Positions 56,732 to 61,276 of a stretch of DNA of 64,000 bases are shown here, in pieces. This stretch comes from Flavobacterium sp. GTDB taxonomy: Bacteria > Bacteroidota > Bacteroidia > Flavobacteriales > Flavobacteriaceae. The stretch covers positions 1,073 to 65,072 of the forward strand of contig JASGHQ010000008.1 in the NCBI GenBank assembly GCA_049841115.1. Direction: 5' to 3'. A model generated the notes under the pieces. It saw nothing but the letters and a program-made list of their open reading frames with translations. It did not search any database and was not told where the DNA came from. The position numbers and the translations under genes were made by a program. The first letter of the stretch is position 1, and each line of letters begins with the position of its first letter.

Positions 56732-58723
56732 ATGAAATTCCAAGTCATCTCCGATTATAAGCCTACCGGCGACCAACCTCAGGCCATTGAAAAACTCTCG
56801 AACGGAATCATCAATGGGGAAAAATTTCAGACTTTACTCGGTGTTACAGGATCCGGAAAAACATTTACCGTTGCCAATGTAGTACAGAATGTAGACAAAC
56901 CGACATTGGTACTGGCACATAATAAAACCCTGGCAGCCCAGCTGTATTCCGAATTCAAACAGTTTTTCCCTAACAATTCGGTGCAGTATTTTGTTTCGTA
57001 TTACGACTACTATCAGCCCGAGGCCTTTATTCCTGTAACCGGAACGTATATCGAAAAGGATCTGTCCATTAATGACGAATTGGAAAAACTGCGTTTGAGC
57101 ACCACTTCTGCCCTGCTTTCGGGACGTCGTGACATTATTGTGGTTTCTTCGGTTTCGTGCCTATACGGTATTGGAAATCCTGTGGAATTTCAAAAAAATG
57201 TGGTTTCTATTGCCAAAAACGAAATCATTTCCCGTACCAAATTGCTGCATCGCCTGGTGCAGAGCTTGTATTCCAGGACCGAAGCCGATTTTACACCCGG
57301 AACCTTCCGCATCAAAGGCGATACTGTTGATATTTTCCCAAGTTATGCAGATGAACCTTACCGCGTGCATTTTTTTGGAGATGAAATTGAGGAAATCGAA
57401 TCTTTTGATGCCAAGACTTCAAAGGTTCTGGAGCGCTACAGCAAACTGAATATCTATCCGGCCAATATGTTTGTGACTTCGCCTGATGTTTTGCAATCGG
57501 CCATCTGGGAAATCCAGCAGGACCTGGTGAAACAAGTGGATTACTTCAAGGAAATCGGCAAGCATCTGGAAGCAAAACGTTTGGAAGAGCGTACCAATTT
57601 TGATTTGGAGATGATCCGCGAATTGGGTTATTGTTCCGGGATTGAAAATTACTCCCGTTACCTTGACCGACGGCTTCCGGGAACGCGCCCGTTCTGTTTG
57701 CTGGATTATTTTCCAAATGACTATCTCATGGTAGTTGACGAAAGCCATGTAACCATTTCCCAGGTACACGCCATGTATGGCGGGGATAGAAGCAGAAAGG
57801 AAAACCTGGTGGAATACGGTTTCAGGTTACCAGCTGCCATGGACAACCGCCCATTGAAGTTTGAAGAGTTTGAATCGATGCAGAACCAGGTCATTTATGT
57901 TTCGGCCACACCGGCTGATTATGAATTGGAAAAAAGCGAAGGGATTTATGTAGAACAGGTCATCCGCCCAACAGGTTTGCTCGATCCGGTTATAGAAATC
58001 CGCCCAAGCCTGAACCAGATTGATGATTTGATCGAAGAGATACAGGTACGCTGTGAAGCCGACGAGCGCGTTTTGGTAACCACTTTAACCAAACGTATGG
58101 CTGAGGAATTGACCAAGTATTTAACCAAAGTTTCTATCCGGTGCCGCTATATCCATTCGGATGTCGATACTTTGGAACGGGTCGAGATCATGCAGGACCT
58201 TAGAAAAGGTTTGTTTGACGTACTGATTGGGGTTAACCTGCTTAGGGAAGGGCTCGATCTGCCTGAAGTTTCACTGGTTGCCATACTTGATGCCGATAAG
58301 GAAGGGTTCCTCCGCAGCCATCGTTCATTGGTACAAACCGTAGGAAGAGCCGCCAGAAACGTAAACGGAAAGGCAATCATGTATGCCGATAAAATTACGG
58401 CCAGCATGCAAAAAACCATAGATGATACCAATTACCGCCGCGAAAAACAGATGGCATATAATATTGCAAACAATATCGAGCCGCAGGCGTTGAAAAAAAG
58501 CCTTGGAAGCGCATTGGGCAACAACTCGGTATCGACAAAATATTTTGAAGATAAGATTGCGAAAGCTGCCGAGCCCGAAAGTTTATACCTGTCAAAGCCT
58601 GAAATAGAAAAGAAAATCCGCGATACCCGGAAAGCGATGGAAAAAGCAGCCAAAGAGCTTGATTTCATGCAGGCAGCCAGGCTTCGTGACGAGATTCAGG
58701 CATTACAGGAGAGGATTTCATAA
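56732..58723 (+). CDS. uvrB: Excinuclease ABC subunit B
   Basis: GDQPQAI, GVTGSGKT, HNKTLAAQL, YYDYYQPEA, DESH, NLLREGLD, GRAARN, C-terminal UVR domain. Confidence 0.99.
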   Translation: MKFQVISDYKPTGDQPQAIEKLSNGIINGEKFQTLLGVTGSGKTFTVANVVQNVDKPTLVLAHNKTLAAQLYSEFKQFFPNNSVQYFVSYYDYYQPEAFIPVTGTYIEKDLSINDELEKLRLSTTSALLSGRRDIIVVSSVSCLYGIGNPVEFQKNVVSIAKNEIISRTKLLHRLVQSLYSRTEADFTPGTFRIKGDTVDIFPSYADEPYRVHFFGDEIEEIESFDAKTSKVLERYSKLNIYPANMFVTSPDVLQSAIWEIQQDLVKQVDYFKEIGKHLEAKRLEERTNFDLEMIRELGYCSGIENYSRYLDRRLPGTRPFCLLDYFPNDYLMVVDESHVTISQVHAMYGGDRSRKENLVEYGFRLPAAMDNRPLKFEEFESMQNQVIYVSATPADYELEKSEGIYVEQVIRPTGLLDPVIEIRPSLNQIDDLIEEIQVRCEADERVLVTTLTKRMAEELTKYLTKVSIRCRYIHSDVDTLERVEIMQDLRKGLFDVLIGVNLLREGLDLPEVSLVAILDADKEGFLRSHRSLVQTVGRAARNVNGKAIMYADKITASMQKTIDDTNYRREKQMAYNIANNIEPQALKKSLGSALGNNSVSTKYFEDKIAKAAEPESLYLSKPEIEKKIRDTRKAMEKAAKELDFMQAARLRDEIQALQERIS

Positions 58724-58751: not shown

Positions 58752-59408
58752 ATGAAATTACTTTTCCTGCTTATTATCCCGTCAATTTGTTTTTCTCAAA
58801 ACAGCTACACAAAATTGACAAAACTGACAAAAAGCGAGTTTGAAAAAGCGGTCAATGACAGTATTGCAAAACTGGATACTCCTGAATTAAACACTTTTTT
58901 AACAACCCTTAAAAACAGTTACAAAACAGACATAAAGCCTTTCAGCAATAAGCTTATCAATAAATTTGAGAATACCAGCGGGCAGCTGGAAATGCATTCC
59001 TTATTGCAATTGCTGCTTGATTTGAAAACTGATACTGCAGCTGTAGAAAATATACTGAATAATAGAAAAGAGGTTTGGGACAACGGGCAATGGGCTGAGA
59101 AATTCTGGAAAACCATCCGGCAGAACAAGCTGAAAGTTAAAGAAGGTAGCTATTATACAGTGGATGCCACAGGGCAAAAAAGATACAACTTAAGATTATT
59201 TTTGGAAGATAAGGTCGCCAATAATGAAATCGGCGCTACTCCGCTACTATTCATTAACAGCACTTTGACCGATTTTCCGATCAACCAGCTTTATGAAACC
59301 CTGCAAAAGCTGGACATAAAAGACATCAGCATAATCCCAATTGACAAAAGCATTGATTTATTTGGGAGCAAGGGTACAGATGGGATGCTAAAAGTATTGA
59401 CCCGATAA
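58752..59408 (+). CDS. Secreted hypothetical protein
   Basis: Signal peptide (CFS|Q); C-terminal SI.IIP...IDLFG.KG.DGMLKV resembles a plug-like motif. Confidence 0.65.
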   Translation: MKLLFLLIIPSICFSQNSYTKLTKLTKSEFEKAVNDSIAKLDTPELNTFLTTLKNSYKTDIKPFSNKLINKFENTSGQLEMHSLLQLLLDLKTDTAAVENILNNRKEVWDNGQWAEKFWKTIRQNKLKVKEGSYYTVDATGQKRYNLRLFLEDKVANNEIGATPLLFINSTLTDFPINQLYETLQKLDIKDISIIPIDKSIDLFGSKGTDGMLKVLTR

Positions 59409-59413
59409 ATGGC

Positions 59414-59884
59414 ATGACAATGGGCAATAAAAATGTAAATTGGAAAAAAGGACGTGGAAAGCTAGGCTTTTTTGATCCGTTAATAGGAAAATGGATCTGC
59501 AACAAAGGTAGCAAAGACCGTATGAATCCTGAGTGCATCAGGACTTTCAGCTACGGTATCGGCAACAGCTATATCATTGAAGATGTAATCTGGAATCTGG
59601 GCAATAAAAGCTACGAAGACCATACTATTATTGGCTTAGACAATTCCAAAGCAATCACCTTTTGGTCATTTACTTCCGATGGAAAAAATTCAAGCGGAAA
59701 ATTTGCAGATGTTACGGATGCCCACGAGCTGGCTATTGGGTTTGAAGCCGCAATGCCGGCTGGCATTGCGCGACAGGTCTTTTGGCCTGACGAAAAAGAA
59801 GGGTTTCACTGGGTGGTGGAATCCAAAAACAAAAAAGGCTGGAACCGTTTTCTACACCAGCATTATGTTCCCTACGAAAAGTAA
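59414..59884 (+). CDS. Hypothetical beta-barrel protein (DUF1579-like)
   Basis: FDPLIGKW, FWSFTSDG motifs; family assignment tentative. Confidence 0.65.
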   Translation: MTMGNKNVNWKKGRGKLGFFDPLIGKWICNKGSKDRMNPECIRTFSYGIGNSYIIEDVIWNLGNKSYEDHTIIGLDNSKAITFWSFTSDGKNSSGKFADVTDAHELAIGFEAAMPAGIARQVFWPDEKEGFHWVVESKNKKGWNRFLHQHYVPYEK

Positions 59885-59887
59885 AAT

Positions 59888-60013
59888 CGTTTCGCGGCTT
59901 TGCGCCGTAGCGGCAAGTTAAGGATAAATGTAATAAGAAATTGTGATGTCCGGAGTATTTTCCAAGAAAGATCAAGCCAGCTATGGCGCAAAACCGCTGT
60001 TAGTTGCTGGCAT
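59888..60013 (-). repeat. attC-like recombination site
   Basis: Minus strand: ACTAAC-A-GCGGTTTTGCGCCATAGC ... GCTACGGCGCAAAGCCGC-GAAAC-G|AT. Arms at 59980-59997 and 59894-59911 are 16/18 complementary around a 68-nt spacer. Confidence 0.72.
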
Positions 60014-60028
60014 GTTAGTCGCATATAA

Positions 60029-60676
60029 TTAATTGTAAGTGATTCTTCTATATTTTTTTAACTTTTTACTTTTAATATCATTGATAATCTTCTTGCTAAA
60101 GCCATATTTAGTTAATGTTTTAGTAATATTTTGGGACTGAATATGTTTATCAAAATAGTACATTCCCCACCAAATAATTTCTCCATCATCACCAAATAGA
60201 ATTTCAATTTCACAATGGCTTAGCAACCAGTAATCTTTCACAAAATATGCTTGGTGTTTATTATTGGTAATTTCTGTTACCTCTGAAAAATAGCAGGGTA
60301 TTGAATCGAAAGTTTTCAAATTTAGATACGTTGAAATTTTCTTTATTTTAAATATTTCTTCAGGAGTAACTACCTTTAGTTTTTTTTTCCTAGAAAAGAA
60401 CTCTAGTTTTTGTTCCAATGAAATCGTATCTATGTTGTCCAACCATACTCGACCTATTGAGTCTCTAATGTCTCCTTTAAATCGGTTTAACGTATTTTTA
60501 TAGCCACAAATACTCGTTGTAAGTAAGATTTTATTCTTTGAGATCAATGAATCTTTAATGATATTACAATATATTGAATCTGAAAAATGAAAAACTTTTT
60601 GTGCAGACAGAATGTTGCTCAAAAAAAGAAATATAAAAAGAAGTTTTAATTTCATCACGTGGTTTTCGTAAGTCAT
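60029..60676 (-). CDS. Cassette-borne secreted hypothetical protein
   Basis: 215 aa; signal peptide from the second Met (MKLKLLFIFLFLSNILSA|QK); about 27% GC by hand count over 60061-60420. Confidence 0.75.
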   Translation of the reverse strand: MTYENHVMKLKLLFIFLFLSNILSAQKVFHFSDSIYCNIIKDSLISKNKILLTTSICGYKNTLNRFKGDIRDSIGRVWLDNIDTISLEQKLEFFSRKKKLKVVTPEEIFKIKKISTYLNLKTFDSIPCYFSEVTEITNNKHQAYFVKDYWLLSHCEIEILFGDDGEIIWWGMYYFDKHIQSQNITKTLTKYGFSKKIINDIKSKKLKKYRRITYN

Positions 60677-60701
60677 TTATGCTTGCAGCTAACCTATTTA
60701 T

Positions 60702-60875
60702 ATGTCAATAAAAATCACCCTGATCACATTGGCGCTACTGAATTGCATGGTATTATTAGGGCAACTTTGGCCGGAAGGCGCCCCGCCATTTGCAACAACA
60801 GTTACGATAATTTTCCTGATCTGCAGCCTGTTGTTTTTTATAACCGAATTGGCAAAAGCCCGAAAGAAGAATTAA
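60702..60875 (+). CDS. 57-aa two-TM small membrane protein (below the ORF-track cutoff)
   Basis: MSIKITLITLALLNCMVLLGQLWPEGAPPFATTVTIIFLICSLLFFITELAKARKKN*; hydrophobic-turn-hydrophobic pattern with a basic C-terminus. Confidence 0.65.
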   Translation: MSIKITLITLALLNCMVLLGQLWPEGAPPFATTVTIIFLICSLLFFITELAKARKKN

Positions 60876-61276
60876 TTCAACTGCTCCTGGAAAACTTCGA
60901 GTAAAAATTCGGCCGGAATCATCTTGGTTGGCGAATCTTCCATCGCCTTCAGGACACGTTTGATGGCATGTGGATTGAGGCCCATATTGATACCTATTTC
61001 GTGTATCTTGATTTGCTCGCGTTCGTGCAGAACCCCATCGCAATGCATCAATAAAGCCAAACGGTAAAACTGCTGGATACGCTCAAATTCTGACTTGATG
61101 ACATGCGGATATTCTTCCTGATGAAACAGATTTTTAAATTCGTCCTTATCAATTTCAAGCTCTTCAGCTATCATCGAAAGAAAAAGATATTCCCTTTCGT
61201 GCAATCTTCCATCAACAACGGAAAAAGCAATCATTTCAGATAAAAGCGCTAATTTGTCTTTGTATTTGTTCATCAA
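60872..61276 (-). CDS. TerB-like (tellurite resistance family) protein
   Basis: Two repeats: VDGRLHERE and CDGVLHERE..I..IGINMGL. Confidence 0.8.
   Translation of the reverse strand: MMNKYKDKLALLSEMIAFSVVDGRLHEREYLFLSMIAEELEIDKDEFKNLFHQEEYPHVIKSEFERIQQFYRLALLMHCDGVLHEREQIKIHEIGINMGLNPHAIKRVLKAMEDSPTKMIPAEFLLEVFQEQLN

Follow-up and report, generated by a model that had tools for sequence, protein, structure and literature searches.

A complete gene cassette in the window

The stretch of DNA analysed here, a window of 64,000 nt from Flavobacterium sp. (positions 1073-65072 of the 72-kb contig JASGHQ010000008.1, hereafter C8), contains at 59888-60692 what is very probably one complete gene cassette of an integron-like system of Bacteroidota. 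We describe the anatomy and exact boundaries of this cassette, an array of similar cassettes on a second contig (C11) with a tyrosine recombinase gene at its head, the signature of circular permutation carried by the cassettes, and the attI-like sequence into which the window cassette is inserted. The assembly consists of 11 contigs with a total length of 3.5 Mb, and roughly 10% of the genome is missing from it. The cassette lies on the minus strand and is composed of the following parts, listed from its 5′ end after the whole unit:

59888-60692, minus strand: whole gene cassette of 805 bp; it starts with the TT behind the crossover (60692), and its last base is the terminal G of the attC-type site (59888)
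60679-60692, minus strand: cassette 5′ end, TTAGCTGCAAGCAT, which in the circular form makes up the R′ half of the cassette's own site
60029-60676, minus strand: cassette gene, 215 amino acids (aa) from the ATG at 60676, an ORFan
60014-60024, minus strand: second inverse-core-like sequence, ATGCGACTAAC, abutting R″, between the stop codon and the site
59999-60013, minus strand: R″ inverse core, ATGCCAGCAACTAAC on the minus strand
59980-59997, minus strand: L″ arm of the long inner stem, which pairs with the L′ arm, with support from covariation
59912-59979, minus strand: variable loop of 68 nt, containing TACATTTA, sequence class (i)
59894-59911, minus strand: L′ arm of the inner stem
59888-59893, minus strand: unpaired GAAAC spacer and terminal G, with the crossover after the G

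The structured element at the 3′ end of the cassette is 126 nt long (60013-59888) and ends in ...GAAACG. On the minus strand it runs through ATGCCAGCAACTAAC, one unpaired A, an 18-nt arm, the 68-nt loop, the complementary arm, GAAAC and the final G. The two arms (59894-59911 and 59980-59997, 18 nt each) are 89% complementary and have 68 nt between them; they account for the 18-bp imperfect palindrome reported in an initial annotation of the same DNA. The matching inverse core described there was likewise recovered: GTTAGTTGCTGGCAT (59999-60013, plus strand) agrees with the cassette 5′ end, GTTAGCTGCAAGCAT when the preceding G is included, at 12 of 15 positions. The cassette junctions read ...TAGG|TTAGC and ...AACG|ATTTT, and excising 59888-60692 in silico rejoins TAA-aatcctatttat-ATG, a 12-bp spacer between two co-directional genes, which bears out the precise insertion that had been proposed.

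Home array on contig C11

A BLAST search with the structured element returned no second copy on C8 and a co-oriented series of copies on C11, between 13.5 and 30.1 kb. The best of these, at C11:17570-17685 and C11:21289-21414, are 92% and 91% identical to the window site, and one further copy lies at C11:179 kb. The main array (C11:12803-30105) comprises at least 18 cassettes in one orientation, and an attC-type hairpin site closes each of them. Directly upstream of it and in the same orientation is a gene encoding a tyrosine recombinase of 344 aa (C11:11664-12695). For the covariance-model scan that the initial annotation had suggested, a model, R1, was built from 15 sites and run against the whole genome. 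It matched in three places only, namely the C11 array, a mini-array at C11:179-181 kb and the window site, so that the window cassette is the only solo copy in the assembly.

Common to the sites of this family are an inner stem of 17 bp and an R box (…YTAAC / GTTA…); AAC and GTT are nearly invariant. An asymmetric spacer, 1 nt long on the 5′ side and 5 nt (GRMAC) on the 3′ side, is kept in all 15 aligned sites, and there is one 1x1 mismatch. Where the bottom strand of a canonical attC has extrahelical bases and an unpaired central spacer, the asymmetric spacer and the mismatch might be the counterparts here. The L stem and the R box are supported by covariation: 14 pairs are doubly changed vs. 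6.5 in shuffles, none of 500 shuffles reached the observed value, and shifting the partner columns abolished the stem pairing. The loops of the array sites are 60-100 nt long and fall into three sequence classes, of which class (i), that of the window loop, is common to array sites a05, a09 and a17 and to the first site of the second array. The bottom strand of the window site was predicted to be the more stable one (-29.0 vs. -22.8 kcal/mol), and the same trend was obtained for most of the reconstituted sites; as a sign of single-strand recombination, this predicted folding advantage is only suggestive.

The relation between the two ends of a cassette was examined in 11 consecutive cassettes of the array. 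R″ agreed with the first 12 bases of its own cassette at 10-11 of the 12 positions, and with the bases that follow its own site at only 4-9 of 12. Such a match within one and the same cassette is expected of circularly permuted units cut after the G of GTT and not of a generic repeat. The window cassette keeps the R′/R″ relation of the array (12/15), and its 3′ end stops at exactly the corresponding G. Its outer boundaries also agree with the G|TT boundaries of the array cassettes, in which the equivalents of the GAAAC and G end of the window site read GGAAC or GGCAC followed by G|TT. In most cassettes, including the one in the window, the start codon follows G|TT at a distance of 16-42 nt.

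The guanine and cytosine (GC) content of the array is 33.9% vs. 40.9% for the genome. Its genes are mostly of unknown function; family matches include FRG, Imm26, DUF6932, a GNAT acetyltransferase, DUF4357 and SUKH-3. Each of the three loop classes has a TAnnTTTN motif (TACATTTA, TATCTTTA and TATTTTTC) located about 25-35 nt before G|TT. These motifs resemble the Bacteroidota -7 box, TAnnTTTG, and the sites might carry a promoter for the next cassette. The distal part of the array (C11:24887-30105) looks worn: ATT replaces GTT at the crossover in three sites (C11:24887, 25554 and 30102), one site ends in G|GCC (26814), the arms of two are degenerate (24118 and 28213), and a response-regulator-like gene on the minus strand breaks the co-orientation.

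The second mini-array (C11:178800-181135, or L003:2801-5136) has at least three cassettes, which encode a 95-aa open reading frame (ORF), a 354-aa fusion of a PLD-like nuclease with an Hsp70-like C-terminus, and an ORF of 157 aa. It opens with ...TATAAATAAG|TTAGCGG and has no array-type recombinase beside it. The surrounding low-GC block contains helix-turn-helix, replication and DnaC-like genes, and two other tyrosine recombinase genes (C11:168302-171161) are located some 8 kb upstream. Possibly these cassettes form an array that is carried by an integrative mobile element.

The target of the stray cassette resembles attI

The main array has its own attI-like site, 104 nt after the stop codon of the recombinase gene. 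It is composed of a small hairpin and TATAAATAAG|TT and reads ...CGAAAGTTTGCTTCGGGTATAAATAAG|TTATGTGCAAT; the part to the right of the bar is complementary at 11 of 12 positions to the inverse core of the first site. A candidate Bacteroidota -7-like box, TACATTTG, is present just after the recombinase stop codon and might belong to a Pc promoter for the first cassettes. The attI architecture was found about 95 nt after a homologous recombinase gene in 14 further Flavobacterium loci. In the 15 loci, our own included, a hairpin of 6-8 bp, the arms of which covary between species, is followed by the core, which in the 14 other species reads TATAWAYRAG|TT.

Read in its own orientation, the window cassette has ...GACATATAAATAGG before it and ATTTTAC after it. 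The two halves of the target are:

60693-60702, minus strand: left half of the target, TATAAATAGG, sharing one base, the first of the start codon, with a 57-aa gene
59885-59887, minus strand: right half of the target, ATT on the minus strand, directly after the stop codon of a 156-aa gene

The reconstructed target, TATAAATAGG|AT, has the same orientation as attI, and its left half resembles the attI core. With a scoring matrix built solely from the attI cores of other species, 106 of the 267,710 genomic GWT sites (0.04%) score as well as the window target. The G|AT junction noted earlier was retained, and its reading as a secondary GNT site can be made more precise: the cassette sits at an attI look-alike, not at any GNT site. 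Insertion at such a place ties the event to an enzyme that uses attI, i.e. to the array recombinase.

Alternatively, a real cassette could have been put in place by another enzyme, such as the housekeeping Xer or a mobile-element integrase, or have come from foreign DNA through illegitimate or homologous recombination. The genome does encode other tyrosine recombinases, on C9 (the housekeeping Xer), on C6 and at C11:168-171 kb. However, the two junctions coincide exactly with the crossover position of the array cassettes, the target is a mimic of the attI beside the array recombinase, and across species only the array-recombinase family co-occurs with these sites. We therefore regard the involvement of another enzyme, or of another type of recombination, as very unlikely.

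Flanking genes and comparison with relatives

The cassette separates two conserved genes, and its own gene is antisense to both:

59414-59884, plus strand: upstream flanking gene, 156 aa, conserved and syntenic in Flavobacterium wongokense
60702-60875, plus strand: downstream flanking gene, a 57-aa small membrane protein, conserved in F. wongokense

F. wongokense is the nearest available relative (uvrB 95% identical at the aa level) and the only one found to be syntenic in this region; it has neither the cassette nor an R1 match at the locus. Exactly at the cassette spot it carries a 58-aa KOW-like gene (L005:4443-4620), and a GNAT-like gene follows the 57-aa gene. Owing to the 58-aa gene, only the last 9 or so bases before the downstream ATG are comparable. 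The stretch from uvrB to terB differs between the close species also in another respect, as uvrB is followed by a 218-aa gene in the window (58752-59408) and by none in F. wongokense.

An empty site in a close relative would read TAAaatcctatttatATG. The reconstructed empty junction would be ...TAAAAT|CCTATTTATATG, and the empty allele ...GAAAAGTAAAAT|CCTATTTATATG. A DNA search with the upstream flank in 40 relatives gave no match, and neither did exact-protein look-ups. Searches for the locus that started from its proteins, in 185,000 species genomes and in metagenomes, found relatives no closer than 82% and 77%.

The same flanks bear on the question of whether the cassette is a fresh secondary-site insertion or the last remnant of an array or attI platform that has decayed at this place. 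The latter is what apparent solo cassettes in other species (L167 and L177) look like, as these have a full attI-like hairpin and core before them and G|TTA after them. In the window, the junction is G|AT, not G|TT, rejoining leaves 12 bp between the flanks, which are parts of conserved syntenic genes, the R1 scan shows no other site of the family on the whole contig, and both the site and the ORF are intact. A remnant seems to us slightly less likely again than insertion by another enzyme.

Distribution of the sites and of the recombinase

Homologues of the array recombinase (E ≤ 1e-60) are present in 77 of 151 sampled Flavobacterium species, about 50 of them with 52-73% identity and the rest with 36-49%. 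Downstream, co-oriented R1 sites are already seen within a 1.5-kb flank at 11 of 29 recombinase loci, and 43 of 61 high-quality Flavobacterium genomes contain R1 sites. In a wider sample of Bacteroidota, the recombinase family was detected in 39 of 301 genomes, representing 21 of 143 genera, and R1 sites adjoin it in other families, too. The arrays, the recombinase, the R′/R″ complementarity and the recurrent pairing of recombinase and sites in Flavobacterium support the proposal, made in the initial annotation, that a cassette of an integron-like system with a non-canonical attC was mobilised in trans by a tyrosine recombinase.

Some genomes (G010 and G022) carry several arrays and no homologue of the array recombinase at E ≤ 1e-60, i.e. 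they are integrase-less and CALIN-like. Many draft contigs end 100-300 bases after the recombinase gene (L114, L117, L118, L124, L133 and others), as is expected beside a repeat array, and arrays are probably under-assembled systematically in short-read genomes. Solo sites of other species were also considered as a source for a consensus of secondary targets and were set aside: 12 of 19 scattered matches proved to be arrays, and the cleaner solos have full attI-like sites before them and resemble stranded platforms rather than secondary insertions.

In a plastic-surface metagenome, the only part of the window that was covered is its site, by 93 unrelated contigs with different flanks, in which the homology stops at 59888 and at about 60009, in keeping with the cassette boundary at 59888. 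The summed word depth of the site family in this metagenome (window 59888-60010) was about 1,500, which indicates that this attC class is very abundant in environmental Flavobacteria.

A GC-rich imperfect palindrome located at the 3′ end of a gene and very abundant in a metagenome might also be a generic intergenic repeat (a repetitive extragenic palindrome, REP, or a miniature inverted-repeat transposable element), a terminator or a small RNA standing by chance beside a low-GC orphan gene. Yet the family occupies three loci only in 3.5 Mb and is always co-oriented with short genes, its arrays are headed by the recombinase or by an attI-like core, and complementarity of R′ and R″ across each cassette is unexpected for REPs. 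Moreover, no Rfam family and no terminator-like T run were found. As for a repeat untied to gene 3′ ends, which had been raised at the outset as a possible objection, all three loci follow the logic of cassettes. A chance association of this kind can be given hardly any weight.

The array recombinase lacks the IntI-specific insertion

The recombinase encoded on C11 matches PF00589 (Phage_integrase, 5.5e-39) and PF13495 (SAM_4, 5.3e-15), and its candidate catalytic residues (R, K, H, R, H and Y) are the same in all of 32 homologues. It narrowly passed NF040815 (XerA / 'integron integrase'; 222.5 vs. 220 bits), which is an unspecific marker because the housekeeping Xer on C9 passes the cut-off, too. 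TIGR02249 (integron integrase) was failed, with 201 bits vs. a cut-off of 265 and two stretches skipping profile positions 180-254. Compared with IntI4 (2a3v), the protein has about 21 residues (query 295-316) where IntI4 has about 63 (chain 180-243), and its alignment with archaeal XerA (5hxy, the best PDB sequence match) is continuous. The IntI insertion was found in none of the 32 homologues. Since this IntI-specific insertion is absent, the C11 recombinase is not an IntI.

A search for IntI-like tyrosine recombinases had been suggested in the initial annotation; a tyrosine recombinase does head the array, and it is not an IntI. The remark that there is no integrase nearby is right for the window and for C8, where tblastn with the array recombinase and a six-frame NF040815 search detected no recombinase, and does not extend to the genome, in which C11 carries one.

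An AlphaFold model of the recombinase (pLDDT 77.6) matches 2a3v and 5hxy equally well. The first 58 or so residues form a confidently predicted extra N-terminal domain with a beta-beta-alpha-beta-beta-alpha order, for which no Pfam or PDB sequence match was obtained; a fold search with the full model was dominated by the recombinase core.

IntI has been defined by its additional domain, which was called necessary for integron recombination (bioRxiv 10.1101/2022.02.06.479319). The system described here would work like an integron, yet its recombinase is without the domain by which one is defined. Smyshlyaev et al. found the insertion 'not fully conserved' within their integron-like recombinase subgroup (PMC8138268).

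That the window holds an ordinary integron cassette (a SALIN) run by a canonical IntI that was missed is the least likely of the explanations considered, and we practically discount it. Integron-like features are seen in the architecture, the GWT target and the array, and NCBI rules name the homologues 'site-specific tyrosine recombinase/integron integrase', but the sole recombinase at the array is without the IntI insertion and stays below the TIGR02249 cut-off, and tblastn and six-frame NF040815 searches over the genome gave no further integrase-like gene (TIGR02249 was not run genome-wide).

Proposed history of the insertion

We propose that the cassette left an array, either that of this genome or that of a donor, as an 805-bp circle formed when two such sites recombined. 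The junction of the circle would read ...GCCGCGAAACG|TTAGCTGCAAGCAT. The same recombinase would then have integrated the circle at the chromosomal secondary site TATAAATAGG|AT, the left half of which mimics the attI core, and the spot hit would have been the 12-bp spacer between two co-directional housekeeping-type genes. We infer that the C11 recombinase did the reaction and that its substrate was a folded single (bottom) strand, as in integrons; the timing of the insertion is likewise deduced.

Taken more broadly, the data incline us, with some reservation, to the view that Bacteroidota have an integron lineage of their own, in which an insertion-less Xer-like recombinase with an extra N-terminal domain would act on folded attC-type sites and cassettes would disperse to attI-mimicking chromosomal sites. 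Several points weigh against the proposed history of the window cassette. The C11 recombinase is without the insertion that classical IntI needs for attC recombination, and the action of this recombinase family on these sites is predicted from sequence. The likeness between the target and attI rests on about 10 bases. F. wongokense has a different gene, of 58 aa, at the spot and no empty site was recovered, so that the pre-insertion sequence is reconstructed rather than observed, and two metagenome runs contain only the repeat, not this organism.

No other sequence evidence of activity in trans is as direct as the stray cassette, with its base-exact junctions and its attI look-alike as target. 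Its attC site and the pseudo-attI target make a ready substrate pair for asking whether an insertion-less recombinase runs integron-type recombination. The finding also suggests that the spread of accessory genes, among them genes for immunity and defence, through the chromosomes of Bacteroidota need not be confined to arrays. If Bacteroidota do have their own integron lineage, the IntI-specific domain is no prerequisite for integron-type recombination, and the window is a natural, base-precise record of cassette dispersal.

Relation to known systems

No description of the Flavobacterium system was found in a literature search. SALIN/attG insertions and the rAID-1 arrays of Bacteroidales are its closest published parallels.

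Insertion of integron cassettes at secondary ('attG') sites follows an experimentally established 5′-GWT-3′ rule, and lone cassettes are known as SALIN (Loot et al., bioRxiv 10.1101/2022.09.11.507474). The window agrees with this in having a lone attC-bearing cassette, no integrase or other attC on C8, and a crossover after the G at GWT. It differs in that the recombinase is not IntI, the attC architecture is non-canonical, and the target resembles the attI core of the platform over about 10 bases, not just GWT.

The rAID-1 arrays of gut Bacteroidales have a XerD-like recombinase at the 5′ end and immunity genes of low GC content that are all co-directional, with intergenic repeats described as 'reminiscent of integrons'; the criteria given there are a recombinase >44% identical to the B. 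fragilis reference and at least 2 co-directional downstream genes with a GC content of 41% or less (Ross et al., bioRxiv 10.1101/471110). The Flavobacterium array is similar in being co-directional, in its GC content of 33.9%, in its repetitive intergenic sequences and in its immunity-type genes, Imm26 and SUKH-3. Unlike for rAID-1, which is presented as an immunity-gene store of gut Bacteroidales, we describe here the site structure, the cassette boundaries, an attI and a secondary-site insertion, none of which figures in the available portion of the rAID-1 account.

Sedentary chromosomal integrons of the 'inverted integrase' type have an integrase gene that is co-oriented with the cassettes. 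The array on C11 shares with them a recombinase gene, an attI and a long array of short, low-GC cassettes of mostly unknown function, as well as homogeneous attC sites, the G|TT crossover and R′/R″ complementarity in each cassette. In contrast to them, there is no IntI insertion around patch III and the recombinase has the extra N-terminal domain of about 58 aa, while the sites combine a 17-bp inner stem with a spacer of 1 nt vs. 5 nt and loops of 60-100 nt in three classes. In Bacteroidetes, IntegronFinder 2.0 reported only lone integrases and one complete integron, in Salinibacter ruber (PMC9024848); surveys that define integrons by the IntI-specific domain and a proteobacterial attC model would miss the present system.

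The recombinase is like XerA and XerC/D in that its catalytic and core-binding domains are colinear with XerA (5hxy), with no IntI insertion, and unlike them in heading cassette arrays and in carrying the extra N-terminal domain. It is also distinct from housekeeping XerC/D, for which the genome has separate Xer genes, and occurs in about half of the sampled Flavobacterium species.

The cassette gene

The low-GC minus-strand ORF, as first pointed out in the initial annotation by comparison with uvrB, was reproduced exactly, with a GC content of 27.5% at 60061-60420 vs. 47.2% in uvrB (57601-57780). For the whole cassette ORF the value is 27.3%, compared with 42-45% in the flanking genes and 40.9% in the genome. 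The position of the start was confirmed as well: the ORF at 60029-60676 begins with an ATG 16 nt inside the TTAGCTGCAAGCAT end. An alternative ATG at 60655, 37 nt in, is the likelier start, giving a 208-aa product with a predicted signal peptide (MKLKLLFIFLF...) and thus a putative secreted protein.

The cassette protein matched no Pfam or NCBIfam family and was an ORFan in a search of 5.8 billion proteins. An exhaustive search of 1.8 billion representative proteins yielded only four weak relatives, with about 30% identity; the contigs of two of these were examined, and neither gene adjoins a site of this family. No recognisable promoter was found for the cassette gene and no Bacteroidota -7 box (TAnnTTTG) ahead of the ORF. 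The gene is antisense to its neighbours, and its transcription, if any, would depend on read-through out of the minus-strand gene at 60872-61276.

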